Positions 2,071-50,478 are shown, numbered from the stretch's first letter. The stretch: 50,478 bases of DNA from an uncultured Acetobacteraceae bacterium (GCA_964250775.1 CAXUHK010000001.1:1-50478), one strand, 5' to 3'. Notes: generated from the sequence alone by a model not told the origin. Numbers and translations: made by a program.

Positions 2071-2821
2071 ATGGCCGACCCGTTCGATGCCTGCCTCGCC
2101 TTCACGCTGGCGCAGGAGGGCGGCTGGTCGGACGACCCCTATGATCCCGGCGGCATGACCATGCGCGGCCTCACCATGGCCGACCTGCGGCAATGGGACC
2201 GCGACGCCACGACGGACGACCTGCGGCTGATGCCGGACGCCCTGGTGGCGGCGCTGTATCGCGCCCTGTACTGGCAGCCGGTGCGCGGCTGGGCGTTGTG
2301 GCCGGGGCTCGACCTGATGCTGTTCGACGCGGCGGTGAACACCGGCGTCGGCGTCGCCACCAAGCAGTTGCAGCGGCTGGTGGGGGTCGCGGCCGACGGC
2401 GCGCTGGGCCCGGTCACGGCGCTGCACGACGGACGACCTGCGGCTGATGCCGGACGCCCTGGTGGCGGCGCTGTATCGCGCCCTGTACTGGCAGCCGGTG
2501 CGCGGCTGGGCGTTGTGGCCGGGGCTCGACCTGATGCTGTTCGACGCGGCGGTGAACACCGGCGTCGGCGTCGCCACCAAGCAGTTGCAGCGGCTGGTGG
2601 GGGTCGCGGCCGACGGCGCGCTGGGCCCGGTCACGGCGCTGGCGGCCGGTTCGATCCGAGGGCGGCCGGCACTGCTGGCGTCGCTGCACGAGGCGCAGTT
2701 CGCGGCCTACGAGCACATGGCCGGGTTCGCGCGGTTCGGCGCCGGCTGGCTGGCGCGGTGCGACCGCCGCTACGCCGCCGCACGCCAACTCGCCGCAATG
2801 CCAGCAGGAGCAACCGCATGA
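2071..2821 (+). pseudogene. GH108 / PG_binding_3 type endolysin, disrupted by an internal 217-bp tandem duplication
   Basis: The N-terminus MADPFDACLAFTLAQEGGWSDDPYDPGG... is a paralog of 8982..9521. The reading frame changes after 2424. The C-terminal part resumes in the frame of ORF 2447..2821. Removing one repeat copy gives an intact 177-aa ORF. Confidence 0.85.
2208..2641. repeat. perfect 2 x 217-bp direct tandem duplication (2208-2424 and 2425-2641)
   Basis: I compared the two copies base by base and they are identical. 217 is not a multiple of 3. Confidence 0.95.
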
Positions 2822-3198
2822 GTGCCTTCACAGTCACCTCGGCCGAGAACGCCGCCGTGCGCGCCGCGACCGACGTGCCCGGGCTGGTCAGCAACCTGCA
2901 GATGATCGACAGCCCGCTGGCGGCGCAGCTCACCGGCAAGGCGTTGGTCGCCAGCAAGACGCCCTGGGGCACGCTGCTGCTGCCGCTGGTGGCCTACCTG
3001 GCGGCGCGCTACGGGCTGGGTTGGACGCCCGACGTCGACGCGCTGGTGGCCGGCGTGGCGGTGCTGGTGGCGTCGTACCTGATGCGGCTGCTGACCTCGG
3101 TGCCGATCACCGGGCTGTTCCGCCGCGCGGCCGTCCTGCCGGCGCCCGCGCCGACCGCCAGTCCGGTCCCCTTCCCGGACCTCGGGGCCAAGCTGTGA
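2818..3198 (+). CDS. holin-like two-TM membrane protein
   Basis: It has an ATGA overlap with the endolysin stop. The hydrophobic segments are WGTLLLPLVAYLAARYGLGW and ALVAGVAVLVASYLMRLL. It is a paralog of 8596..8973. Confidence 0.55.
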   Translation: MSAFTVTSAENAAVRAATDVPGLVSNLQMIDSPLAAQLTGKALVASKTPWGTLLLPLVAYLAARYGLGWTPDVDALVAGVAVLVASYLMRLLTSVPITGLFRRAAVLPAPAPTASPVPFPDLGAKL

Positions 3199-3566
3199 CC
3201 CGCGCCCTGTTCCTGCTGCTGGCGCTCGGCCTGGCCAGGTGCGCCGGCCCGGTCGCCACCGCGAGCACCGCGAGCGTCTCCGGCGCGCAGCAGGAGCTGC
3301 AGGCGGCAATCCAGCTCTACAGCATCGCCAAGGGCGTGGCCGAGGTGGCGGCGGTGGCCGATCCAGGGCTGGCGCCGATCCTGCTCACCACCACGGCGAC
3401 GCTCGACCTCTAGGTCGGCCGGGCGCAGGCGATGCTCACGGTCGGCGTGGTCGACGCGGTGGCGATCGAGGCGCTGGCGGCCAGCATCACCGCGCACGCC
3501 AACGCGCTCACGCTGGCGGCCGCGCCGGTGATCAAGGCGGTGCCGTCACAGGCCGCCGCCGACTGA
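3195..3566 (+). pseudogene. lysis-cassette lipoprotein with an in-frame TAG at 3411-3413
   Basis: It has a GTGA overlap with the holin-like stop and a signal ending ...LGLARC. The same frame continues after the TAG as VGRAQAML...ALTLAAAPVIKAVP. That aligns with the intact paralog 8240..8599 (...ALTLAAAPAVKVVPAA). Confidence 0.7.
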
Positions 3567-8239: not shown

Positions 8240-8599
8240 TCAGGCCGCCGGCACGACCTTCACGGCCGGCGCGGCGGCCAGCGTTAGTGCGTCCGCCTGC
8301 GCCTTGATCGAAGCGGCCAGTGCGTCAATGGCGGCGGCGTCGATAGTGGCGTCGTTCACGGCGAGCTGCGCCCGCGCCACGGCCGGGTCTACCGCCGCAG
8401 TGACCATGGCGACGGCCGTGGCAAGGCCGGGATCAGCCACGACCGCGACCTGAGCCAGCCCCTTCGCGACGCCGTAAAGCGTCAGGGCTGCCTGCAACCG
8501 GGTTTGAGCCTGCGACACAGTGGCGACGGTGGCGGTCTGCACCTGACCGGCGCACGCCGCCAGGGACAGCACCAAGGCGGCGACGGCTGGGCGGATCAC
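8240..8599 (-). CDS. lysis-cassette lipoprotein (intact)
   Basis: It has a GTGA overlap with the holin-like stop and the lipobox LSLAAC. It is a full-length homolog of pseudogene 3195..3566. Confidence 0.6.
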   Translation of the reverse strand: MIRPAVAALVLSLAACAGQVQTATVATVSQAQTRLQAALTLYGVAKGLAQVAVVADPGLATAVAMVTAAVDPAVARAQLAVNDATIDAAAIDALAASIKAQADALTLAAAPAVKVVPAA

Positions 8600-8973
8600 G
8601 GCTTGTCTCCTACGGCGGCAACGGGGATTGGCGCTGAGGCGGCTACGGCCGGCGGCAGCGCCTTGGCGTGGAACAGCCCGGTAATCGGGATCGAGGTCAC
8701 GGCGCGCATGGCGTAGGAGCCGACTAGCACGGCAACGCCCGCCACCAACGCGTCAACGTCCGGGCCCCAGCCAAGGCCGTAACGCGCGGCGGCGTAGGCT
8801 ACCACGGGCAGGAGCAGCGTGCCCCACGGCGTCTTGCTGGCAGCCAGCGACTTGCCGACGAACTGTTGCGCCAGCGTCGGGTTGACGACTTGCAGTTTGT
8901 CCACCAGGTCTGGCAGGCTCTTGGCCTCCCGAACGGCCACATCTTCGGCGGTGGCGACGGTGATCGCGGTCAT
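8596..8973 (-). CDS. holin-like two-TM membrane protein
   Basis: ATG at 8973, 8 nt after the endolysin stop, preceded by GGAGCC. It is a paralog of 2818..3198. Confidence 0.55.
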   Translation of the reverse strand: MTAITVATAEDVAVREAKSLPDLVDKLQVVNPTLAQQFVGKSLAASKTPWGTLLLPVVAYAAARYGLGWGPDVDALVAGVAVLVGSYAMRAVTSIPITGLFHAKALPPAVAASAPIPVAAVGDKP

Positions 8974-8981
8974 GCAGGCTC

Positions 8982-9521
8982 CTATGCAGTGGTGGAGTGG
9001 TTGGCGGCGTTGAACAGTTTCATGGCAGCCGTGAACCGGCGATCCGCTCGTGCCAGCCACCCCACGCCGAACGTGGCAAAATTGCCCATGACGCGGTATG
9101 CGTTGACGTGATCGTTATGAAGGATCGCCAGCAACAAAGCGTGGTTCGGGTATTTTGCAGCGGCGGCGGCCGTGACCGGACCAAGGCCGCCGTCCACCGT
9201 GACGCCAAGCCGGCGCTGTAGCTGCTTGACCGCCGTTCCGACGCCAGTGTTGACCGCCGCGTCGAACGTCAAAAGGTCAAGGCCAGGCCACAAGTCCCAG
9301 CCCCGCACGGGCTGCCAGTAGAGCGCGCGGTAGAGGGCTGAAACCAAATCCGCCGGCATGGCGCGCAAATCGGCCGGCGTGGCCTCGCGGTTCCAGTGCA
9401 GCAAGTCTGGCATGGTCAGCCCTGCCATAGTCGCGCCGCCGGGGTCGGCTGGGTTATCGGCCCAACCGCCCTCCTGGGCCAGCGTGAAGGCCAAGCACGG
9501 GTCGAACGGGTCTGTTGCCAT
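8982..9521 (-). CDS. endolysin, GH108 N-terminal domain plus PG_binding_3-like C-terminal domain
   Basis: Supporting segments are MATDPFDPCLAFTLAQEGGWADNPADPGGATMAG..., YRALYWQP and LQRRLGVTVDGGLGPVT. Confidence 0.85.
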   Translation of the reverse strand: MATDPFDPCLAFTLAQEGGWADNPADPGGATMAGLTMPDLLHWNREATPADLRAMPADLVSALYRALYWQPVRGWDLWPGLDLLTFDAAVNTGVGTAVKQLQRRLGVTVDGGLGPVTAAAAAKYPNHALLLAILHNDHVNAYRVMGNFATFGVGWLARADRRFTAAMKLFNAANHSTTA

Positions 9522-9557
9522 GCCCTATAGGAAGCACAGCCGAAACGTCTTTTCCCG

Positions 9558-9920
9558 TCAGGTTTGCGGCTTTAGCTCGTCCGGTATGCTGCCTGGAACC
9601 ATGAGGACGATCGGCTTGCCAATGCGCTCGAATACGATGCGCTCGGAGCCGATCTTGGCAGATTTTTCCCAGCCATCCGCCATAAGCAGGATCATGCCAT
9701 AGGCGGCGTCCATGAGCGGGCCGTCGAGAGAGAGCCATATAAGCTGCTTGGCGGGGTCTGTTTCCCAATCCGCCCCGACAGCGTGTGCATGAGCTACCGG
9801 GGAATAGATCGGGATACCTGCCCCAACCAAACGACTCGCCTCTCGACAAGCGAGGCGGAACGCGGCAGCCCGGCCGGGCGGGTGCTCGCGATAAGGGGAA
9901 CTCATATACCAATATGCCAT
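9558..9920 (-). CDS. DUF1937 (nucleoside 2-deoxyribosyltransferase-like fold) protein, copy 1
   Basis: The supporting pattern is YWYMSSPY...GIPIYSPVAHAHAV...WLSLDGPLMDAAYGMILLMADGWEKSAKIGSE. GGAG lies 6 nt before the ATG at 9920. An alternative start is at 9932. Confidence 0.65.
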   Translation of the reverse strand: MAYWYMSSPYREHPPGRAAAFRLACREASRLVGAGIPIYSPVAHAHAVGADWETDPAKQLIWLSLDGPLMDAAYGMILLMADGWEKSAKIGSERIVFERIGKPIVLMVPGSIPDELKPQT

Positions 9921-10002
9921 CGCAAGCTCCATTTTGTGCTGCTTGCGTCGTCTAACCGTCCCCTGTTAGCTTGTCAATAAGCGGGGACGCTTAGGAGGGG
10001 TT

Positions 10003-39063: not shown

Positions 39064-39245
39064 GCAGGCGCTCCCGAGCGCATCCGCAGCGCCGTCAAAT
39101 GCTCCGGCAGATGCACCCAATTGGCCGTCAAGTAGGCCATCTCGACAAACATCAAAGCCAGCTTGTGCGCTTCGGCCGGAGTGAGGTGGCCGTATTCGTC
39201 GGCGCGGGGCGGACGCGGCATAGGGAGACGCACGACCTCGCTCAC
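39060..39245 (-). CDS. hypothetical protein
   Basis: The GTG at 39245 forms a GTGA overlap. It is 61 aa. Confidence 0.35.
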   Translation of the reverse strand: MSEVVRLPMPRPPRADEYGHLTPAEAHKLALMFVEMAYLTANWVHLPEHLTALRMRSGAPA

Positions 39246-39505
39246 GACAGCGCCTCGACCAGCCGGCGCTTGATCCGGGTGACAATCCCGACCGGCTTGC
39301 GCGCCGTCGCCAGCCACGTTGCATACTCCGCAGTCGGAACAAAGCTGGCGTAGCCGTCGAGCACGACCTCGGCCAGCGACCAGTTGGTGCCGTCGTCGGC
39401 CGTGACCTGGACCAACCCGGAATTGTCCCGGAAGCTGTAGCTCTTGCCGACCGTGAACAGCGACACGGACCGCGCGACGCAAGTGTGCTCTGGATAGGCG
39501 TTCAT
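39242..39505 (-). CDS. hypothetical protein, paralog of 43897..44121
   Basis: The two share the pattern FT(V/A)G(K/R)(S/T)Y...D(D/N)GT.W...EVVL(D/E)G.A(S/T)F.P. Confidence 0.5.
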   Translation of the reverse strand: MNAYPEHTCVARSVSLFTVGKSYSFRDNSGLVQVTADDGTNWSLAEVVLDGYASFVPTAEYATWLATARKPVGIVTRIKRRLVEALS

Positions 39506-39828
39506 GGCGTGGTCCCTTCAAGGTTGACAATGGCTTTGTCGAACGCGGCGAGCACGTCGGCATGGGTGGTGGTGGGGTCGTCGTTAAAGTCGGACACACT
39601 TCGCTTGGTCATAGCGGCAAGCGTCATTTGCGCCGTCATTCGATCCACATCCCAATCGCTAGTAAAACTTTCGGCCCATATCGCTCCGACGCCGCACCAA
39701 CACACGGCGGTTTCGGATTGCGGGAAACATTCCTTGCCGGACGCGTTCCGGGCCTCGACATGCTTCGTCCAACGCGCCGGATCGCTGATCCGCTCCCGCG
39801 CCGCCCGCAAGATGGCTACGGCGCTCAT
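39502..39828 (-). CDS. hypothetical protein (ARWTK...CWCGVGAI motif)
   Basis: ATGA overlaps at both ends. It is 108 aa. Confidence 0.5.
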   Translation of the reverse strand: MSAVAILRAARERISDPARWTKHVEARNASGKECFPQSETAVCWCGVGAIWAESFTSDWDVDRMTAQMTLAAMTKRSVSDFNDDPTTTHADVLAAFDKAIVNLEGTTP

Positions 39829-40094
39829 GCCGCTACCTTGAGCGTTTGCGCCGGCTGAAACGCCTGCCCTACCACGAGCCAATGGATCGATCGATTGAAC
39901 AGCGCCGACAATGCCAGCATGTCCTCCATGGACGGCCGCCCGCCACCGCTCTCCCATCGGCAAACCATCGTTTCCTTTTGCCCGATGGCCCGGGCGACCT
40001 CGCGCAGCGAAATGCCGCGCCGCTTGCGCTCGACCTCGATCCGCTTGCCCAGCGCGCAAGTGAGCGGCGAGCCGACTGTCACACGGCGCGGCAT
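39825..40094 (-). CDS. XRE-family HTH regulator (Cro/CI-like)
   Basis: The supporting segment is LGKRIEVERKRRGISLREVARAIGQKETMVCRWESG. Confidence 0.65.
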   Translation of the reverse strand: MPRRVTVGSPLTCALGKRIEVERKRRGISLREVARAIGQKETMVCRWESGGGRPSMEDMLALSALFNRSIHWLVVGQAFQPAQTLKVAA

Positions 40095-40348: not shown

Positions 40349-40524
40349 TTCACCCTCTCAAACGTCGTGTTTTTGTGCGCGCGCCAGACCAATCCGCCGT
40401 GTTCGTCCCTGACTGCGAAATGCCGGTGGTAGGCTTGGACAACCGCGTATTCCTTGTCCCGCACCAGCCAATCGCCAGTGCCGATGAGGCATTTCACAAT
40501 GTCTCCGACTGCAAGCTGGCTCAC
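40345..40524 (-). CDS. 59-aa hypothetical protein
   Basis: My own translation is VSQLAVGDIVKCLIGTGDWLVRDKEYAVVQAYHRHFAVRDEHGGLVWRAHKNTTFERVK. It has a GTGA overlap upstream and an ATGA overlap downstream. Confidence 0.4.
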   Translation of the reverse strand: MSQLAVGDIVKCLIGTGDWLVRDKEYAVVQAYHRHFAVRDEHGGLVWRAHKNTTFERVK

Positions 40525-41030
40525 GACCGCGCCCCGATCATCCAGGCCGGCGGCACGTCCGCCAGGACCGGCACGCTCTGCGCTTCCGCTTCCGCCCGAC
40601 GCCGCAGGTAGTCGGGCGATGGCCCGCCGCAGTCCGCCAGGTGCAGCGGCGCAAACGTCACCGATTGCGACTTGCTCGGAGCGAAACGGACTTCCGCTTC
40701 CTGCCGCTGCCGGGCGATTTCCTCCGCCACATCGGCGAGCACATTGCTTTCGACCCGACCGATGCGGTCAATTTGGTCGAAGCGGAAATGCCGGCGCGGC
40801 ACAGTATCGACATAAAACATATCGGCAGCGTCGTGCTGCTTGACAAAGATCATCACCCGACCTGAAATCGTCAGGCAGCCGACGCCCAGCCCGTTACTGC
40901 GGACCGGCATACAATGTGCGATTTGGTCATTAACCCCGTACACGAGATACGGTCGCCCATCTCCCGTCGCGATCAGTTGGCCTTTTTGAATTGCTCTTGC
41001 CATGGACGCCTCGGTGAGTTGCGGTGTCAT
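40521..41030 (-). CDS. hypothetical protein, first gene of the minus-strand early operon
   Basis: It has an ATG start and is 169 aa. It faces an AT-rich divergent intergenic region. Confidence 0.5.
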   Translation of the reverse strand: MTPQLTEASMARAIQKGQLIATGDGRPYLVYGVNDQIAHCMPVRSNGLGVGCLTISGRVMIFVKQHDAADMFYVDTVPRRHFRFDQIDRIGRVESNVLADVAEEIARQRQEAEVRFAPSKSQSVTFAPLHLADCGGPSPDYLRRRAEAEAQSVPVLADVPPAWMIGARS

Positions 41031-41166
41031 TTCTATACACGCAACGCTGAGCGCCGGATAGTGGGGAAGCGTGATTATATTTTGTGGATGTCAAGCAAAA
41101 TTATGGGGTCTTTGTGCATCCAAACAAACATCTGTCGCGTAACGAGCGCATAACTCACAAATGTTT

Positions 41167-41254
41167 ACATTTCTGCCGTTGTGTCTTTAGAAGCGACGTG
41201 TCACAAACGCTGCACGGCGGGGCGATAGTGCAAAGCCGAGACAAGGCTACTCCA
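41167..41254 (+). promoter_or_regulatory. conserved promoter/leader cassette, copy U1
   Basis: ACATTT lies 29 bp before ACGTGTCACAAA (41196-41207), followed by GGCGGGGCGAT and GCAAAGCC. The candidate -35 is TTGTGT (41179-84) and the candidate -10 is CACAAA (41202-07), 17 bp apart. Confidence 0.5.
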
Positions 41255-41497
41255 ATGACCAATTTTCCGACCGTGGCCGTGGCTCTTGCGGCTCACCAAG
41301 CGGCCAAGGCCGCTCATGTGGCCGCCAAAACTGCCCTGACGACAGCCGAACTGTCCTATCCGCTGGTTGGCGACCGCGTGCAGTTGCAAGTTAATGTCCG
41401 CAAGGCACGTTTGGTCGAAGAGAGTGTGTGGGCGGAGCTGTATGCCGCGCGAATGGCCGATGCGGTCGACGATAAAGCCGGAAAGCTGGCGGCCTAA
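41255..41497 (+). CDS. hypothetical protein (starts MTNF)
   Basis: The ATG lies 59 nt after the ACGTGTCA box. It is 80 aa. Confidence 0.5.
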   Translation: MTNFPTVAVALAAHQAAKAAHVAAKTALTTAELSYPLVGDRVQLQVNVRKARLVEESVWAELYAARMADAVDDKAGKLAA

Positions 41498-41520
41498 TCC
41501 GCCGGACGCAACAAATGACG

Positions 41521-41611
41521 ACAATTTCCTTGTTGCGCCCGGCTTTGTGACGTGTCATAACGATTGCATCGCAGGGCGGTAGTGCCAGGCTGGAACAAGG
41601 GGCTTAGTGCC
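41521..41611 (+). promoter_or_regulatory. conserved promoter/leader cassette, copy U2
   Basis: ACAATTT..TGTTGC lies 29 bp before ACGTGTCATAA (41550-41560), followed by GCAGGGCGGTA and GCCAGGC. The candidate -35 is TTGCGC and the candidate -10 is CATAAC. Confidence 0.5.
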
Positions 41612-41824
41612 ATGACGCAATTCCAGGTTACGATGATCGGGCCATACAACACGTTGACCGGGGCGACGATTACAGCTCAAGGCGGGGTCAATGCCGCGTT
41701 CGAGGCGATGGCGACGTTCGGGGTGGGCTGGCGGGTGATCCGCTGCCTTGAGCTCCCGAGCGTGCCGCTGAGCGTGCCGCGGATCGGGGCGCAGGCTGGC
41801 AACAGGCAAGGGAGGCTCGTGTGA
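41612..41824 (+). CDS. hypothetical protein (starts MTQF)
   Basis: The ATG lies 62 nt after the box. It is 70 aa. Confidence 0.45.
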   Translation: MTQFQVTMIGPYNTLTGATITAQGGVNAAFEAMATFGVGWRVIRCLELPSVPLSVPRIGAQAGNRQGRLV

Positions 41825-42042
41825 ACGGAGACCGCATCCGCGAACTGCGGGAAGCGCTGGGCTGGTCACAGCGCGACCTCGCCGGCCGCCTGGGCTTTAA
41901 GACGCACACGCCGGTCAAGCAGTGGGAAAACAACCAATCCACCGCGCCCGCCGCGGTCATGGCTTGGCTTGAGCGCAGCGCGTCGGCGTTGATGGAGCAG
42001 CCGTTGCCGCAGGGATGGGTCGTGCGGTCGGACATTTTATAG
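41821..42042 (+). CDS. small HTH-like protein
   Basis: It has a GTGA overlap with the upstream stop. The supporting segment is IRELREALGWSQRDLAGRLGFKTHTPVKQWEN. Confidence 0.55.
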   Translation: MNGDRIRELREALGWSQRDLAGRLGFKTHTPVKQWENNQSTAPAAVMAWLERSASALMEQPLPQGWVVRSDIL

Positions 42043-42194
42043 CGATCACTACGGAACCTGCGCGCGTGCGGGCGTGCGGGGGAACAACGTTCAGTTGACA
42101 ATGTTCAGTTGAACATGCGCCGGCAGTTATACCAAGTTTAGCCCATCCGGCATAAACCTGGTATAACTCACACTCGACCCGGTTTACCCGCGAC

Positions 42195-42722
42195 CTACTT
42201 ACGTTGCACCGATCGCCGCTTCGGTTTACCAACCGGCTCTTGCCCGTGCCTAAGCCACCACACGCCGAGCAACGCGGCCTCCGCCCTCCCGTCGTCTTTG
42301 GCTCGCTTGAACAGCGCCGCTTGGTCGGGAAACATCTCCGCCGCCATGGCCCGCGAGCGGTCCTTGTCGCTGTCCAGCCCCATGTCCCGCTTCCACCGCG
42401 CCGCAGTGACCAATTCCATCGGCACGCCGCAGCCGGCGAGCACGCCATGCACGATTCCGGCTGCTTGCCCGAACGCGAACACGCTTGAGACGCCCTGACC
42501 TGGCATGGCCGATACAGCCTCGCAGATGGCGCTACAAGCTGTTGCAGACTTGACCAGCACTGCGAGACCTGCCGCGTCCGTTCGCGCCCTGGCGACCATT
42601 TTCCCGGCCTTTCTGATGGTGGTTACAGTGGCCGGCATGTCCCAGCAGCCCAACAACGATCCATCGTCATCGATGTGGGCTACAGCACCGCAAGCGCCAG
42701 GATCAACCGCGAGCAATGACAT
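42195..42722 (-). CDS. RuvC-like Holliday junction resolvase
   Basis: Supporting segments are MSLLAVDPGACGAVAHID... and AARWKRDMGL..DKDRSRAMAAEMFP...KDDGRAEAALLGVW. An alternative upstream start is at 42782. Confidence 0.7.
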   Translation of the reverse strand: MSLLAVDPGACGAVAHIDDDGSLLGCWDMPATVTTIRKAGKMVARARTDAAGLAVLVKSATACSAICEAVSAMPGQGVSSVFAFGQAAGIVHGVLAGCGVPMELVTAARWKRDMGLDSDKDRSRAMAAEMFPDQAALFKRAKDDGRAEAALLGVWWLRHGQEPVGKPKRRSVQRK

Positions 42723-42802
42723 TGCCGCCGTGGTTGCCACACCCCACCACGCCATTCCCGGCACGATCCGCGCGGACGCCATTTGTCATACATTCCGGTG
42801 GA

Positions 42803-43316
42803 AAAACTCATTCCTAACTCATCCCTAACTCGTTTCCAAATTGGGTTAGGATTGAGTTACGTAGTTAGATCAACGATTTAACCCCATAAAACCAACTCAA
42901 TTCTCATTCCTTACGCGAACTTAAAAGCTGGCCGAAGCCTTTTTCTTATATAAGTTTATGTAATAGATGTGCTTACCCGTCTCTTCCTCTATATATAAGG
43001 AAAAGCGGACCTGCGCGTATGTAATTTTCACGAGTATCGTGAAAATGGATTTTAGCACGAGCTTACTACGGTCGCACCGTATTTCACCCGGATGAGCATT
43101 GCTTACGACGAAACTGGGAAGGCTGTCAACTACGCATCACGTTGATCTGCGGGAGGGATCGCGAGGTTGAGTTTGAGTAGGTTTGAGATCGAGTGTGGGA
43201 ACTTGGCAAGGAATGAGAATTGAGTTTATTTTTGGGGTTAAACCTTTGACAAATATAAGAAACTCAGAAATACGTGGTTCAGGAATGAGTCTAGGAATGA
43301 GTTAGGAATGAGTTTT
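42803..43316. repeat. AT-rich non-coding locus with nested, concentric inverted iteron arrays (candidate origin or looped operator)
   Basis: The outer arms are 42803-42837 and 43281-43316, each with three AGGAATGAGTT-type units at 11-12 bp phasing. The inner arms are 42875-42912 and 43208-43244, with a perfect 18-nt core. A 10-bp palindrome lies at 43024-43046. Only 16-17 codon ORFs occur inside. Confidence 0.8.
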
Positions 43317-43344
43317 GCGGAGCCCGGAACCGCTACATAGGTTG

Positions 43345-43433
43345 ACAATTCTGTTGTTGCTTCCTTCGCATTTACGTGTCACAAACTTGCTCACGGCGGG
43401 GCGATCAAGCCAAGCCGATCGGAGTGACGGACG
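43345..43433 (+). promoter_or_regulatory. conserved promoter/leader cassette, copy U3
   Basis: TTGACAATT..TGTTGC lies 29 bp before ACGTGTCACAAA (43374-43385), followed by GGCGGGGCGAT and GCCAAGCC. Confidence 0.5.
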
Positions 43434-43745
43434 ATGAGCTACTTCACCGACGACTGCTTGGCTCGCGCTGTGGCCGAGATGGCTACGGTCGAGGCCGGCG
43501 CTCGCGCGGCTTTGACGCTGGCGGTTGCGCTGGCGGAGCAGCAGATGGCGGCTTTGCAGGCGGTAGACGGCTTGGACATGGAGGACGCGATTGCCTCGGT
43601 CGATAGCAACCTGTCCGATTTGCGCGACCATCTCGCCAACCTGTCTGAGCGGTGCGACGGCCGGGTGGAGTCGTTGGCTCAGGATTACGAGGATTTGAGC
43701 GGCGGCACTTATGCCGACTGGCATCGCGACCAGGCGTATGCGTGA
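43434..43745 (+). CDS. hypothetical protein (starts MSYF)
   Basis: The ATG lies 60 nt after the box. It is 103 aa, acidic and helical. Confidence 0.5.
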   Translation: MSYFTDDCLARAVAEMATVEAGARAALTLAVALAEQQMAALQAVDGLDMEDAIASVDSNLSDLRDHLANLSERCDGRVESLAQDYEDLSGGTYADWHRDQAYA

Positions 43746-43900
43746 TGTCGGGCAACATGCAGCCGGGGGAGCAAGCCCCCAAGGACACACCCACGGCGGT
43801 TCAGCCTGATTTGGTGGCGGTGGACGTTCCCGATGACGGCGAGGTCGTCTACGGCGATCTACAGCGCTTGGAAGCGTTCGGATGGGAGCGGGACCAATGA
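43745..43900 (+). CDS. 51-aa hypothetical protein
   Basis: It has a TGATG overlap upstream and an ATGA overlap downstream. Confidence 0.35.
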   Translation: MSGNMQPGEQAPKDTPTAVQPDLVAVDVPDDGEVVYGDLQRLEAFGWERDQ

Positions 43901-44121
43901 GGGTCGATTACGTTTGCGCCACCAGCAACTCGCGGTGGTTTACCGCTGGGCGAACCTACACCGCGTATGAGATGGCCGGGCAGGTGATGATGCTGAACGA
44001 CAACGGCACGCCCTGGCCGACGGCGGAGGTCGTGCTCGAAGGCCAAGCGACGTTCAACCCGGCTGGCCTCGCGCCGCGCCGTTGGAGCACGCGGCTGCGA
44101 CAACTGGCCGGGGTGCGCTGA
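43897..44121 (+). CDS. hypothetical protein, paralog of 39242..39505
   Basis: The translation is MRVDYVCATSNSRWFTAGRTYTAYEMAGQVMMLNDNGTPWPTAEVVLEGQATFNP... Confidence 0.5.
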   Translation: MRVDYVCATSNSRWFTAGRTYTAYEMAGQVMMLNDNGTPWPTAEVVLEGQATFNPAGLAPRRWSTRLRQLAGVR

Positions 44122-44131
44122 ACCAAAGTCA

Positions 44132-44216
44132 ACAATTTTTCTGTTGCGTCGGAAGATGCGACGTGTCACAAAAATGGGGCAGGGCGACTATGCCAGGCGA
44201 CAAAAGGTGCAAGCCA
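44132..44216 (+). promoter_or_regulatory. conserved promoter/leader cassette, copy U4
   Basis: ACAATTTTTCTGTTGC lies 29 bp before ACGTGTCACAAA (44161-44172), followed by GCAGGGCGACTA and GCCAGGC. Confidence 0.5.
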
Positions 44217-44372
44217 ATGACTGAGTTCAACATTAAGCCGGCTGACCTCGCGGCGTGCCGGCGCTATTACGCCCAGCGGCACCGCACGGCGGTGACTAAG
44301 GCCCTAGCGTTCTGGATGCGCGCTGCGGCGGACCGTGCCGACGTGGCGGATGAAATGGAAGTTTGCTCGTGA
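44217..44372 (+). CDS. 51-aa hypothetical protein (starts MTEF)
   Basis: The ATG lies 56 nt after the box. Confidence 0.4.
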   Translation: MTEFNIKPADLAACRRYYAQRHRTAVTKALAFWMRAAADRADVADEMEVCS

Positions 44373-44566
44373 CCACAACTCCCCGCCCAACTCCGGCCGA
44401 GCGCGCTCGCAAGTCGCGGGCGGCGCTGCGCAAGCGGACGATCGAGCTGCGCGGCGAGGCGTTTGACTTGCTGGCGCGGGTGATGGAGCGGGACGGCGAC
44501 GCGAGTCTGGTGGCGGCGGCGACGCGGGCGATCTTGCAGGCGTGGAAGGTGGGAGGTCGGGTGTGA
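44369..44566 (+). CDS. hypothetical basic protein
   Basis: It has a GTGA overlap with the upstream stop. It is 65 aa. Confidence 0.4.
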   Translation: MTTTPRPTPAERARKSRAALRKRTIELRGEAFDLLARVMERDGDASLVAAATRAILQAWKVGGRV

Positions 44567-44814
44567 GTTACCACAAGCCGGTGACGACGCTTGCTGAACT
44601 AGACACGCTGGACGAAGCGGAGATGCGCGCTGGTTATTGTTCGGCAGAGCGCGGAGACATTGAGCCAGGTGGCAACCATTCGCGGTCGTTCCATCACGGC
44701 TGGCGCACGCGGATGATGGATTTGCATGAAATACCGATACCGTTAGAGCATCGGAGACTCGTGCATGAATGGGCGCATCGGAATCAAAAAGCTCGCAAAC
44801 CATTATCCGCTTAA
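44563..44814 (+). CDS. small protein with an Rmf/CrpP-like motif, paralog of 45957..46175
   Basis: GYCSAERGDIEPGGNHSRSFHHGWRTRMMD compares with GYRDGFDLSSPEPSENRSHSYRHGFANGRDD. The GY..G...P...R/S..W/Y..GW pattern recalls RMF. The assignment is weak. Confidence 0.4.
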   Translation: MSYHKPVTTLAELDTLDEAEMRAGYCSAERGDIEPGGNHSRSFHHGWRTRMMDLHEIPIPLEHRRLVHEWAHRNQKARKPLSA

Positions 44815-44963
44815 ACGCCGCAGCAGTGCGCGAGCAACTGCGCCAGGCAATTCGGGCTGGCGGCGAAATTTGCGGTATTATGTAGCAAGCACACCAAGCG
44901 CCTGCTCCCGCCAACCCATTGATTAGATTACAATGATTGCCCTCCACAGACAAGGGCGATCCG

Positions 44964-45290
44964 ATGACCGACTACGTGCTTGCGGGCCTCACGAAGCGCC
45001 GCGCCGAGTTGGCCGGTGAGGCTGAAACCCTCCGCGCCAGGCTCGCGCAGATCGCGACCGACACGGGCCACCTTGACGCTGTGATCCAGCAGTTTGATCC
45101 CGACTACGACCTGGGCAGCATCCGGCCCAAGCGCCCGCGTATGCAGGACGCGGCAGGACGTAGAGGACCGCCGGCTCGTGAAGCTGACCATGAAGCGCGT
45201 GGGTATGGCGTTCAGTCGGCAGAAGGCGACAGGAACGGTGCGGGCGATCCAGGGGCCGGGCCGGTTACGCTTTGGGAGGTGGCGGGGTGA
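44964..45290 (+). pseudogene. hypothetical regulator-like protein, possibly carrying two compensating frameshifts
   Basis: The N-terminal helix (MTDYVLAGLTKRRAELAGEAETLRARLAQI...) and the C-terminal ...GPVTLWEVAG are in one frame. The more protein-like middle (RLVKLTMKRVGMAFSRQKATGTVRAIQGPG) is in the frame of ORF 45094..45363. Confidence 0.3.
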
Positions 45291-47926: not shown

Positions 47927-50272
47927 TCAATCAACCCCTTCCGGCTTGTCATTGTAAATCTCGTAATACGTGATAGGCCGCTGCTTGCTCGGCGATTTTT
48001 CGTGGATTTTCACGACCTGATTGCTTTCAATTAGCATTTGCAGAGCGTCATCCCGCTCCGCCGGTTTCATCGTCTGCACCTTTTTCGACAGCTCCGAAAG
48101 CGTGACCCGTCCGCCGCTATCCGCGATGATGCCCAGCACCTTCTTGGTGCGCGCTTGGACCGGCGTGTCACTCGCCTTGCGCTCGGCCTCCACCAGCATC
48201 GTGTCGATGCAGTGCTGCACCAAGTCGCGCGCCCACTCGAAGTCTGCCATCTCGATCACCGGGCGAGCCGGGCAGCGCGACACCGCTGCGATAAGCGCGA
48301 CCTTAATCGTGTGCTCAAGCTGGCGGGCGAACACTGCCGTCGAATACTCGCCCTGGTGGCTGCGCAAAACGGCGGTGATCTCGCAGTCGAAAGCGCGGAT
48401 GGCGTTCGCTACGCCGATCCCGTAGGGCACGGGGTAGGCTTTCATCTCTGTGGTGGCGGAGAACAGCTCGGCCAGATCGCCGCCGTAGTCGTGCCTTTCC
48501 GCACCGCGCGCTATAGCCTGAAGCGTTGCCACCATGTCGAGAGGCGCGGCCACGTCATCGGGCATGGGGTTGGTGTCGGGATAGTGAACATCAGTTACGA
48601 ACACGAGAAACCGTGCCAAGCTGCCGTCCGACATAGCTCCGCCTTCGACCGCTTTCCAGAGCGGGCCGGGAACGGTGGTGCCCCAAATGCAAGCGTTCGG
48701 CTGGCGAATGTCCACGCGCGGGCGGCCTCCCGACGCCGACTGGTTGGCGTATTCAGCCCCGATCAGCGTCTCGCCCGCACTGGTAAACAGTTTCGTCATC
48801 ATGGTCAGCACGCCGGCCATCCGCTCCGAAACGTGCTCGCCGGTCATGGTCGCCAAAAACTTGCCGAACTCATCGATTTGGTAGACCCGAGCTGGGTGCA
48901 TTTCGAGCGAGGTCAGCAAGCCAGGCGCGGACGGCAATCCCTCGCCGCCAACCCATTTGTCGAGACCGGCCGCAAAAAGCAGCTCCTTGGCGCACCGCCG
49001 CGCGTTGTCTTTGCCGCCGCCGCTGTCTGCTACGCCGATCCCAAAAAAGTTGGTCCGCAGACCGGATGGGCTTTTGTAGCACCTTCCCGCCACCGCTCCC
49101 AACAAAGCGAGCGCCGCTCCCACTGCCAGAAACGGCTGCGGGCTTTTTGCGGTGCGATCGGCAAAGCGCACAAAGTCGCCAAGGAAGCCGGTTTGCGGGA
49201 TCAAGTGCGCCGGGACGTAGTAGCCGGGCATCGAACGCGGAGCGGCGTCAGGTTCAATCGTGGCGGCTTCGCGGGGCATGTTGGCGATGCGTTCAAGGAA
49301 CGCCGCCGCCGGGTGTGGTTCGCCTGCCATCTCGGCGTCAGTGCCGTTCAACACCAAATCACGCGCCGGCCGCCAGCCCTGTTGCTCGGCCAGCCAGTAG
49401 ATCGTCCCGGCCCCCATGCTGCGCGGGCGCAAGGTGGCCCACAGCTCGCGCGTGCGGGCCGGATCGTTCTTGGTTGACCATGCCGACCAATCCTCGAACA
49501 GAGAAAGGCCAGCATCGCCCAGCGCGCCCTTGAGGCCCATGCCGACGCGAAACCAGTCATCCCAATGCAAATCGGCGTTCGGGATATGGTTCAAGGCCGA
49601 CTGAATTGCCTCCATGGTGCCGCGCGGATCGGACGGGCCTCGCCATGCCGACTGCTCCAGGGAGGCTGTCAGGGACGCCTGGCGCTGGTCATCCGGTAGC
49701 ATCTCCCACGCGGCCTGTAAAAACGCCGCCACGCCCTCTTGTGTGACCATGGGCAGGCTGGTGATGTCTGTGTTGGCCGGGTGGCTGTCAGGCCAATCGT
49801 AGGGCCTCTGTGTAGTCGGGTGTATGGCAGCGGCCACAAACTGCTGCCCATGGCACAAGGCCTCGATCGGGTGACGCTTGACGCCAGGGAACGGCCGATC
49901 AGTGCGATAGACCAGCAGCGCTTTGGGTGCGAGGCCGATGCGAATGAGCGGCGTGTCGCCAAGCATCCGAAGTGCTAAGTTGCGCAGACGGATGGACAGT
50001 TCCGGGTCGAGCACGTCGATGTCGATGCCGCAGACGTTGCCGCACGCGATGCCGATGCCGGCTCCGATCCACTTCTTCCACTGCATCAGCTCAAACGGCT
50101 TGGCTTCCCGGTCACAGTAGCGTTGCCATTCCGGCAAGTCCTGCCATTCGTCGAATTGGCAACGCTGCGGCTTCTTGGTGCCAGGTCCGATTGGCAAGAT
50201 GTGATAGCCGGCCGATAGCATCGCGTCCGCGTGGCGCTCCATGAAGCCGACTGACACTGAGCTATTCTCCAT
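47927..50272 (-). CDS. replication protein: prim-pol N-terminal domain, PriCT-2-like region, DUF3987 helicase-like domain and a C-terminal wHTH-like tail
   Basis: Supporting segments are AGYHILPIGPGTKKP...GIGIACGNVCGIDIDV (prim-pol), DWFRVGMGLKGALGDAGLSLFEDWSAWS (PriCT-2) and FLGDFVRFADRTAKSPQPFLAVGAALALLGAVAG...GVADSGGGKD (DUF3987). The ATG at 50272 overlaps the upstream ORF. Confidence 0.8.
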   Translation of the reverse strand: MENSSVSVGFMERHADAMLSAGYHILPIGPGTKKPQRCQFDEWQDLPEWQRYCDREAKPFELMQWKKWIGAGIGIACGNVCGIDIDVLDPELSIRLRNLALRMLGDTPLIRIGLAPKALLVYRTDRPFPGVKRHPIEALCHGQQFVAAAIHPTTQRPYDWPDSHPANTDITSLPMVTQEGVAAFLQAAWEMLPDDQRQASLTASLEQSAWRGPSDPRGTMEAIQSALNHIPNADLHWDDWFRVGMGLKGALGDAGLSLFEDWSAWSTKNDPARTRELWATLRPRSMGAGTIYWLAEQQGWRPARDLVLNGTDAEMAGEPHPAAAFLERIANMPREAATIEPDAAPRSMPGYYVPAHLIPQTGFLGDFVRFADRTAKSPQPFLAVGAALALLGAVAGRCYKSPSGLRTNFFGIGVADSGGGKDNARRCAKELLFAAGLDKWVGGEGLPSAPGLLTSLEMHPARVYQIDEFGKFLATMTGEHVSERMAGVLTMMTKLFTSAGETLIGAEYANQSASGGRPRVDIRQPNACIWGTTVPGPLWKAVEGGAMSDGSLARFLVFVTDVHYPDTNPMPDDVAAPLDMVATLQAIARGAERHDYGGDLAELFSATTEMKAYPVPYGIGVANAIRAFDCEITAVLRSHQGEYSTAVFARQLEHTIKVALIAAVSRCPARPVIEMADFEWARDLVQHCIDTMLVEAERKASDTPVQARTKKVLGIIADSGGRVTLSELSKKVQTMKPAERDDALQMLIESNQVVKIHEKSPSKQRPITYYEIYNDKPEGVD

Positions 50273-50404
50273 CGTTGGCCGGGAGGTCGGAAGATGAAGC
50301 GATTGCATAGAGATATCCACGCACGACGGTTTCGATGAAGCTATCCCACTGTTCGGTCGTGAGCTGACCCACGTCGGTCTTGCGCAGCTTGCCGAGATAC
50401 GCGC
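50262..50404 (-). CDS. 3' end of an ORF truncated by the junk contig edge
   Basis: The open frame reads ...YLGKLRKTDVGQLTTEQWDSFIETVVRGYLYAIASSSDLPANDGE* and ends 8 nt inside the primase start. Confidence 0.3.
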
Positions 50405-50478
50405 CCCCGGCCCCCCCCCCCCCCCCCGCCCCCCCCCCCCCCCCGGGGGGGGGGCGCGGAGTAGGGGGGGGGGCCCCC
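50405..50478. other. G/C homopolymer-rich low-complexity contig end
   Basis: It consists of long C runs followed by G runs with no coding signal. Confidence 0.6.

Follow-up and report, generated by a model that had tools for sequence, protein, structure and literature searches.

Among the closest known counterparts of the element reported here are two kinds of phage sequence. Promoter-early stem-loop (PeSL) cassettes are found in T4-type phages (PMC2839356; PMC4122927); such a cassette runs over about 100 bp from a stop codon through an A/T-rich tract, a -35, a -10, a GGGC...GCC stem-loop and a Shine-Dalgarno sequence (SD) to an ATG, and stands before ORFan genes (PMC2839356). Start-associated sequences (SAS, with a further form termed ESAS) have been described in Cluster K mycobacteriophages (PMC3203893). 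Here we describe one composite non-coding element that occurs four times on the plus strand of a 50,478-nt stretch of DNA from an uncultured Acetobacteraceae bacterium (GCA_964250775.1, CAXUHK010000001.1:1-50478), each time directly 5' of an ATG (at 41255, 41612, 43434 and 44217). The whole stretch, referred to below as the window, takes in 50.5 kb of a 68176-bp source contig, of which about 18 kb lie outside it, and holds a temperate prophage of the myovirus type.

We read the four copies, with a probability of roughly 0.55, as a small regulon, in which four near-identical promoters of the phage each continue into a shared leader and start context. Most likely, the cassettes would activate four transcription units that carry accessory or early genes of the prophage. 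As a sequence family they are new, though phage features of this ordinary kind are well known; they are laid out like the T4 PeSL but fall outside that family, and the sequence was found nowhere else in the collections searched.

The core of the element is the box ACGTGTCAYAA, which starts at 41196, 41550, 43374 and 44161, always on the plus strand. These four exact matches in the window compare with 0.02 expected from 100 dinucleotide-preserving shuffles, none of which reached four. An ACAWTT box begins exactly 29 bp 5' of the core in all four copies (at 41167, 41521, 43345 and 44132), GCRGGGCG-N5-GCMARGC is present in all four with 0 mismatches, and the distance from the core to the ATG is 59, 62, 60 and 56 nt in copies 1 to 4. 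A first-pass annotation of the window had reported the four-copy element, the fixed 29-bp spacing, the ATG 56-62 nt after the ACGTG box, and four proteins that share the start M-(T/S)-x-F and nothing else; all of this was borne out, the element itself both by box matches and by the motif and covariance models which that annotation had proposed to build from the four copies. The nhmmer profile matched only these four places in the window, with E values of 1e-22 to 1e-25, and the covariance model scored them at 75-82 bits, the next best match in the window reaching 12 bits. Each of the three boxes was also sought alone elsewhere in the window, and none occurred above chance. The annotated consensus required some correction. 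Its boxes hold, but copy 1 departs from them (ACATTT..CGTTGT, GCAAAGC), copy 4 reads GGGCGAC where GGGCG(A/G)T had been given, and the size of ~85 nt falls short of the true span of ~110 bp; the cassette reaches about 13 bp further upstream, and this extension includes a second ACAAWT-like repeat 10 bp before the first.

Overall, pairwise identity between the copies is only 56-64%, and the longest exact run that they have in common is 11 bp. The identity is arranged in blocks separated by spacers that have diverged in sequence and kept their length, which points to constraint on the boxes rather than to recent duplication. Stop codons inside the cassette fall in the frames of genes 2 and 3; the cassettes are therefore non-coding. 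A weak echo of the 3' part of the cassette (ACAAGGGCGATCCG-ATGACC, M-T-D-Y) was observed at 44927-44975, 5' of a plus-strand open reading frame (ORF) at 44964. The covariance model gives this echo only 10.9 bits (E 1.2), and it may be a fifth copy in decay or a chance likeness.

When CAYAAM is taken as the -10 hexamer, the same promoter map is obtained for all four copies (Table 1): TTG at -35 to -33, a spacer of exactly 17 bp, TG at -15/-14 (one base 5' of the hexamer), and A at -11. The core box covers -18 to -8 and reads as an extended -10 (cGTGt-CAYAAM). The A/T-rich tract upstream has a GC fraction of 0.32-0.44 versus 0.60-0.62 locally. Spacing is rigid 5' of the -10 and variable downstream of it, with 7-11 nt between the box and a GC-rich dyad and 18-21 nt between the dyad and the ATG; such a pattern would follow if one protein complex recognizes the upstream half as DNA and the rest is transcribed. 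The core box is not symmetrical: its left flank varies (GCG, GTG, TTT, GCG) next to an invariant GTCAY, which fits an element read by a sigma factor better than a dimer operator. Agreement with the -10 consensus of Caulobacter RpoD, GCtANAWC (PMC8144410), is found in 5-6 of 7 specified positions, this consensus being that of Caulobacter and perhaps not that of the host.

The genomic positions of the copies are also informative. Copy 1 lies within a 224-bp divergent region after a minus-strand gene (40521-41030, 169 aa), and copy 3 opens the plus-strand features that follow the RuvC-like gene (minus strand) and an iteron/AT-rich structure. Because both stand where blocks of plus-strand genes begin after minus-strand genes, plus-strand transcription must begin at or near them. 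Copy 2 takes up the whole interval from the stop of gene 1 (41497) to the ATG of gene 2, while copy 4 overlaps a TGA stop (44119-44121) and reaches to the ATG of gene 4, again filling the whole gap. The weak sigma70-like promoter proposed in the first-pass annotation (a -35, a 17-bp spacer and a CAYAAM -10) is thus supported in all four copies as far as sequence can support it, except that the -35 given there, TTGyGy, does not hold for copy 3, which reads TTGCTT. The TG at -15/-14, the A/T tract at the position of an UP element, the rigid upstream spacing and the location of copies 1 and 3 strengthen the proposal.

Table 1. Coordinates of the cassette copies, their predicted parts, the genes behind them and other genes of the early region. 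Positions are counted from the first nucleotide of the window; HTH, helix-turn-helix; prim-pol, primase-polymerase.
Feature	Position	Strand	Remarks
Cassette copy 1, whole	41152..41266	+	predicted -62 to codon 4 of gene 1
Cassette copy 2, whole	41506..41623	+	
Cassette copy 3, whole	43330..43445	+	
Cassette copy 4, whole	44117..44228	+	
A/T-rich UP-element-like tract, copy 1	41152..41176	+	predicted -62..-38; GC 0.32; ACAAAT + ACATTT repeats 10 bp apart
A/T-rich tracts, copies 2-4	41506-41530, 43330-43354, 44117-44141	+	GC 0.36-0.44
Putative -35, copy 1	41179..41184	+	TTGTGT
Putative -35, copies 2-4	41533-41538, 43357-43362, 44144-44149	+	TTGCGC, TTGCTT, TTGCGT
Putative extended -10 + hexamer, copy 1	41196..41207	+	box ACGTGTCACAAA; hexamer CACAAA
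Putative extended -10 box, copies 2-4	41550-41561, 43374-43385, 44161-44172	+	CATAAC in copy 2
Interrupted GC-rich dyad, copy 1	41217..41236	+	GCGGGGC-GATAGT-GCAAAGC; predicted +4..+23
Dyad, copies 2-4	41571-41590, 43396-43415, 44179-44198	+	
SD + ATG, copy 1	41243..41257	+	AAGG
SD + ATG, copies 2-4	41597-41614, 43421-43436, 44204-44219	+	AAGGGG..ATG, GGAG..ATG, AAGGTG..ATG
Gene 1	41255..41497	+	80 aa, MTNF..., no family match
Gene 2	41612..41824	+	70 aa, MTQF..., no family match
Gene 3	43434..43745	+	103 aa, MSYF..., acidic, ORFan
Gene 4	44217..44372	+	51 aa, MTEF..., no family match
XRE-type HTH gene	39825-40094	-	
XRE-type HTH gene	41821-42042	+	next after gene 2
RuvC-like resolvase gene	42195-42782	-	
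Prim-pol/helicase gene	47927-50320	-	

In the leader we identified an interrupted dyad, GCRGGGC-N6-GCMARGC, at +1/+4 to +23 relative to the predicted transcript starts. As a hairpin it would read GC-RG-GGC, a 6-nt loop, and GCC-AR-GC. In this register 87.5% of cells pair, versus 12-38% when the 3' partner is slid, and the RNAalifold consensus of the four copies is the dyad itself. The hairpin forms in all four first-27-nt segments when these are folded alone (-9.1 to -14.5 kcal/mol), and only these isolated segments fold better than shuffles (z -0.95 to -3.9); whole leaders do not (z +0.8 to -1.7). None of the six dyad pairs (0/6) shows a compensatory change, a comparison of four sequences that has little statistical power. 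The only correlated change is in the internal loop, which goes from G.A to A.G on both sides together between copies 1/3 and 2/4; this is a single event that shared ancestry could explain. One stem pair is broken in copy 1. Rfam 15 gave 0 matches at E<=5 in 40900-44700 and 0 matches at the gathering score across the whole window. The hairpin lacks a U-tract (T-run), no plus-strand terminator-like site is predicted in 40900-45000, and the 7-11 nt between box and hairpin are not conserved and hold no boxA-like conserved stretch.

The first-pass annotation had pointed to a short stem of the GCAC...GTGC type in copies 1 and 2; it is present in these two copies only, and the interrupted hairpin common to all four (GC..GGC-N6-GCC..GC) is a different one. 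The accompanying suggestion of a conserved RNA leader fares poorly. The shared 5' hairpin speaks for it, but the folding with covariation analysis that was proposed as a check found no covarying pair, Rfam offers no match, and the folds of whole leaders equal those of shuffles. The dyad is real, and it may be either a DNA operator or a 5'-terminal RNA hairpin, between which sequence alone cannot decide. As DNA, it could serve as an operator overlapping +1, the usual place of a repressor. Stem-loops at the 5' terminus are of a kind known to protect mRNA.

Conservation passes from the leader through the SD into codons 1-4, where third-codon positions vary and the amino acids are kept. All four proteins begin with M-[TS]-x-F and are otherwise unrelated. 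Given that phenylalanine makes up 3.4% of the residues of the phage, finding three further phenylalanines at position 4 has p ~4e-5. For gene 3, no true homolog was found among 1.84 billion representative proteins.

Taken as a regulon, the locus would work as follows. Host RNA polymerase with a housekeeping (RpoD-type) sigma factor would bind the A/T-rich UP-like tract (-62 to -38), the weak -35 TTGYGY and the extended -10, and transcription is predicted to start about 6-8 nt past the -10, near 41214, 41568, 43392 and 44179. The dyad, either in the first ~25 nt of each transcript or as the same DNA, would be the point of control that the four units have in common. A phage HTH protein could use it as an operator (two small genes for XRE-type HTH proteins are located nearby), or it could be a 5'-terminal stem-loop that sets mRNA stability. 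The A-rich linker and the SD, followed by the start context ATG-AS(N)-NAN-TTY, would then provide uniform translation initiation. We infer the start sites, the sigma factor used and the role of the dyad from the sequence, whereas we observed directly that there are four copies, how they are laid out, that they do not code and where in the genome they lie.

Comparison with PeSL cassettes shows the same succession of an A/T-rich tract, a -35, a -10, a GC-rich stem-loop of the GGGC...GCC type, an SD and a start codon, and behind both kinds of cassette are small ORFan genes of a variable early region; one PeSL subclass also has its stem-loop downstream of the -10. The differences are substantial. 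PeSL promoters are strong consensus sigma-70 promoters, whereas the cassettes described here are weak by that consensus. PeSL stem-loops are stable terminators, while the hairpin here is interrupted, reaches -9 to -14.5 kcal/mol, and lacks a U-tract. PeSL copies number tens per genome, our cassettes four, and the former are carried by lytic T4-like phages, in contrast to a temperate prophage of a probably alphaproteobacterial host. Recombination between copies is a demonstrated property of PeSLs and only a possible one of our cassettes, and conservation into codons 2-4 is found here only. The genome is also not of the T4 type: the prophage carries genes for sheath, baseplate, portal, large terminase (TerL), RuvC and prim-pol, and has no DNA match among phage records. 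Since neither a terminator-grade stem-loop nor a T4-type genome is present, we do not file the cassette as a PeSL.

The likeness to SAS and ESAS is of another kind. Like the cassettes, they are repeats that are asymmetric, keep one orientation and accompany the starts of unrelated genes, and the ESAS form has an inverted repeat just upstream of the start region; a role in expression is suspected for both. However, the SAS measures 13 bp, overlaps the SD within a few bp of the start codon, occurs in 11-19 copies per genome, and is conserved cluster-wide, whereas the invariant block of the cassette lies 56-62 nt upstream with promoter geometry. The SD itself differs between our copies (AAGG, AAGGGG, GGAG, AAGGTG), so that the defining overlap with a common SD motif is absent.

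Other temperate phages offer parallels in regulation. The Streptomyces phage phiC31, in work by Ingham and colleagues from 1993 and 1994, reportedly has several near-identical, non-consensus, intergenic early promoters, and these are said to carry conserved inverted repeats (CIRs) for which repressor binding was demonstrated. If so, it shares with the present prophage a temperate lifestyle and repeated non-consensus promoters with a conserved inverted repeat, and differs in host phylum, in the sequences, and in having more copies; the dyad here is only a candidate operator. The C-dependent late promoters of Mu and the Ogr/B-dependent late promoters of P2/186 are activator-dependent, number four in each case, and belong to temperate myoviruses. 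They resemble the cassettes in having about four promoters per genome, an upstream box at fixed spacing and a weak -35, but they drive late morphogenetic operons and have identified activators, whereas small accessory genes follow the cassettes and no such activator gene is recognizable. A lambda-type nut site consists of boxA and a boxB hairpin in the promoter-proximal leader. The cassettes likewise have a short conserved hairpin in the leader just past early promoters; in contrast to nut, they lack a boxA-like stretch, no N-like gene was recognized, there are four sites versus two, and the hairpin is interrupted, with a 6-nt loop of variable sequence. We therefore do not class them as nut sites.

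Several observations weigh against reading the cassettes as promoters for the host polymerase. An E. coli-type sigma-70 consensus scan calls none of the four sites, because the sites lack T at -7 (A or C is found there) and at -12; agreement of the -10 hexamers with TATAAT is limited to 3-4 of 6 positions, and that of the -35 with its consensus to TTG. Since no plus-strand terminator is predicted to separate copies 1 and 2 or copies 3 and 4, the internal copies are not strictly needed as promoters. Promoter function leaves the conservation of codons 2-4 unexplained, and no relative with the cassette was found in IMG/VR, in JGI metagenomes or among ~160 relative loci. The invariant 11-bp box exceeds the normal demand of a housekeeping sigma factor and may indicate a dedicated factor. 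It seems possible, though we hold it doubtful, that the promoters are read only with a phage-specific factor, either an activator at the ACAAWT repeats and GTTGY region or a phage sigma factor or appropriator for ACGTGTCAYAA; this would make them a middle-class set like those dependent on Mu C, P2 Ogr or T4 MotA, a variant of the promoter reading and not its opposite. The poor sigma-70 hexamers, the exact spacing between the long box and the upstream boxes, and two ACAAWT repeats placed one helical turn apart at about -57 and -47, a typical activator position, all favor such a factor. However, no activator or sigma-factor gene was recognized in the window, and the early-region ORFs showed no sigma, Mor/C-, Ogr- or MotA-like protein, only the two XRE-type HTH proteins, with the caveat that a factor gene could lie in the ~18 kb of the source contig beyond the window, and the upstream box has good inverted-repeat character only in copies 2 and 4. 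We consider it unlikely that the functional unit is RNA, in which case the leader (hairpin, SD and first four codons) would be a cis-regulatory element to which a phage or host factor binds, controlling translation, stability or antitermination of the four mRNAs, with the upstream boxes secondary. An interrupted hairpin beside the predicted 5' end in 4/4 copies, the two-sided loop swap, and amino acid conservation in codons 2-4 are what such an element would show, and a class of start-associated repeats is known from Cluster K mycobacteriophages (PMC3203893). Against it stand the folding results for whole leaders, the missing compensatory pairs and Rfam matches, the broken pair in copy 1, the lack of a boxA-like stretch and of a U-tract, and a loop swap explicable by shared ancestry; moreover, the most invariant block and the rigid upstream spacing lie outside the predicted RNA. 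More specifically, the transcribed half might be a previously undescribed phage cis-regulatory RNA, in which a tandem purine-purine internal loop is kept by the G.A to A.G swap and which, with the SD and AUG-AS(N)-NAN-UUY, forms an operator for a phage RNA-binding protein. Such an RNA would coordinate translation or stability of four ORFan mRNAs as an alphaproteobacterial counterpart of the mycobacteriophage start-associated sequences; we regard this as very unlikely.

Two explanations remain. The cassettes might be conserved mainly as recombination linkers, as proposed for T4-type PeSLs, where exchange between copies inserts, deletes or swaps small ORFan modules and each module would bring its own promoter. 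The layout is that of the PeSL, with ~100 bp conserved (PMC2839356), the flanked genes are small, unrelated and without families (gene 3 being an ORFan), gene 1 has a direct copy on either side, as does the gene 3 block, a gene for a RuvC-like resolvase is found between copies, and a pair of paralogous genes (39242-39505 and 43897-44121, described below) shows that the region has been rearranged. Nevertheless, homologous recombination would be poorly served by copies that are 56-64% identical with exact runs of at most 11 bp, the conservation lies mostly in boxes instead of being even, the stem-loop is weak with no plus-strand terminator predicted, and no relative was found that shows presence or absence of a module. 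This makes a linker role quite unlikely. The linker reading, the RNA-level one and dependence on a phage factor could each hold alongside the promoter reading. That the similarity has no function at all, as chance or the residue of neutral duplication, would agree with an element confined to this genome in every collection searched, but it is hardly credible in view of four exact boxes where 0.02 are expected, the same order, strand, spacing and pre-ATG position in all copies, and blockwise conservation across diverged spacers of kept length.

A number of other readings of the cassette were tried and rejected, the alternative promoter types being judged by eye against their consensus sequences. 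The spacing of GG-N10-GC does not fit sigma-54. For FliA/sigma-28 (TAAA-N15-GCCGATAA, compared with CAYAA...GGGCGAT) the box spacing varies by 4 nt among copies, for an ECF-type (extracytoplasmic function) promoter the spacing is wrong, and the CII-type pattern TTGC-N6-TTGC lacks its second repeat. Better-looking -35 hexamers overlapping the ACA box (TTGACA, TTTACA) have no conserved -10 at 16-18 bp. As a palindromic operator (GYGAC-GT-GTCAC), the core box fails on its left arm, which varies between copies. If GUCA in the box were to pair over a long range with UGAC at the start codon, only 3-5 bp would form, and an upstream transcription start that is unsupported by evidence would also be needed. 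A leader peptide was dismissed because short ORFs are present in copies 1 and 2 only, and a coding cassette because of in-frame stops in copies 2 and 3.

In order to find relatives, we scanned four exact IUPAC patterns against IMG/VR and the JGI metagenomes. These scans returned chance matches only, each without the other boxes. No DNA match was obtained by blastn of the region against 50,697 phage records. The best homolog of the RuvC-like protein is 52% identical, and none of 80 RuvC-linked GTDB loci contains the box, GTDB genomes having been searched with protein queries only. One relative of the prim-pol/helicase is 68% identical, on a 3.7-kb contig without the cassette region, and the rest are ~50% identical; 80 primase-linked IMG/VR loci gave no string, nhmmer or covariance-model match. 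Homologs of gene 44563-44814 that are 62-65% identical were found in four IMG/VR contigs, which show neither synteny nor the cassette. No relatives were found for the 169-aa neighbor protein, no match for a concatenated query of nine small proteins, and no record in exact-protein look-ups of the window genes.

Repeats in the primase-linked loci were considered as promoter cassettes and rejected, since they are coding repeats in HTH-domain proteins. Such HTH-like coding repeats are present in nine of these IMG/VR loci (L142 at 9363-9986, and L140, L146, L150, L157, L158, L161, L164 and L206). In distant primase relatives (~49%), the gene before the primase encodes two tandem ~40-aa HTH-like repeats (..SAREVARRLGLSHTAIQNAERAGRIAREEDGSWDVE..), and a third copy of this repeat is located ~9-10 kb away.

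The prophage carries minus-strand genes from ~8.2 to 38.7 kb for tail sheath, baseplate, major head protein, portal, large terminase, exonuclease and a GH108 endolysin, and its early region occupies 39-50 kb. The GC content of the first 8 kb of the window is 65-74%, versus ~62% for the prophage. The closest primases are from alphaproteobacterial genomes, for example Elioraea, Roseomonas and Paramagnetospirillum, and the host is therefore probably an alphaproteobacterium.

Several further features of the early region were observed. A structure of ~515 bp (42803-43317) separates the RuvC-like gene from cassette copy 3. It has terminal inverted repeats of ~110 nt (42803-42912 and 43208-43316) that are 76% identical and consist of several copies of an iteron of 11-12 nt, TAGGAATGAGTT / AACTCATTCCTA; they flank an AT-rich core of ~295 nt with the only two consensus sigma-70 matches of the region. 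The structure looks like a replication origin (iterons and an unwinding region) or an insertion resembling a miniature inverted-repeat transposable element. In the convergent gap between the HTH gene that ends at 42042 and the RuvC-like gene that ends at 42195, the segment 42089-42168 contains a direct repeat, GTTCAGTTGA, at 42089-42098 and 42103-42112, and a perfect 9-bp inverted repeat, AGTTATACC / GGTATAACT, at 42125-42133 and 42160-42168. They may bind a regulator or form a bidirectional 3'-end structure. Two paralogous small genes on opposite strands, 39242-39505 (-) and 43897-44121 (+), share 72% nucleotide identity over 68 nt and have weak matches to phrog_3249 and phrog_12802. One is part of a leftward operon and the other lies between cassette copies 3 and 4, so that the pair is evidence of a past duplication or inversion in the early region. 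At the end of the window, just 5' of the start of the prim-pol/helicase gene, there is a 68-nt imperfect palindrome (50409-50476) that is 79% self-complementary.

At the other end of the window, positions 2077-3545 of the high-GC flank are 64-75% identical, in inverted orientation, to the lysis end of the prophage (8249-9512), which includes the GH108 endolysin gene (8982-9521). The flank also contains a perfect 217-bp tandem duplication (2208-2424 and 2425-2641). These features may represent a second lysis module, a prophage remnant beside this prophage, or an artefact of assembly.

Repeated promoters that share a leader are well known in phages, so the cassette by itself does not change the general picture. 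Small phage ORFans of the kind found behind it often have host-takeover or anti-defense functions. If the promoter reading is right, the cassette marks a regulon of ORFans that are switched on together by a temperate alphaproteobacterial myovirus, and its promoter box, dyad and start context provide a handle for finding the phage regulator that controls them. It would also supply a little-studied host group with a compact and portable promoter-leader unit, and be a further case for testing promoter cassettes as recombination linkers outside T4-like phages.

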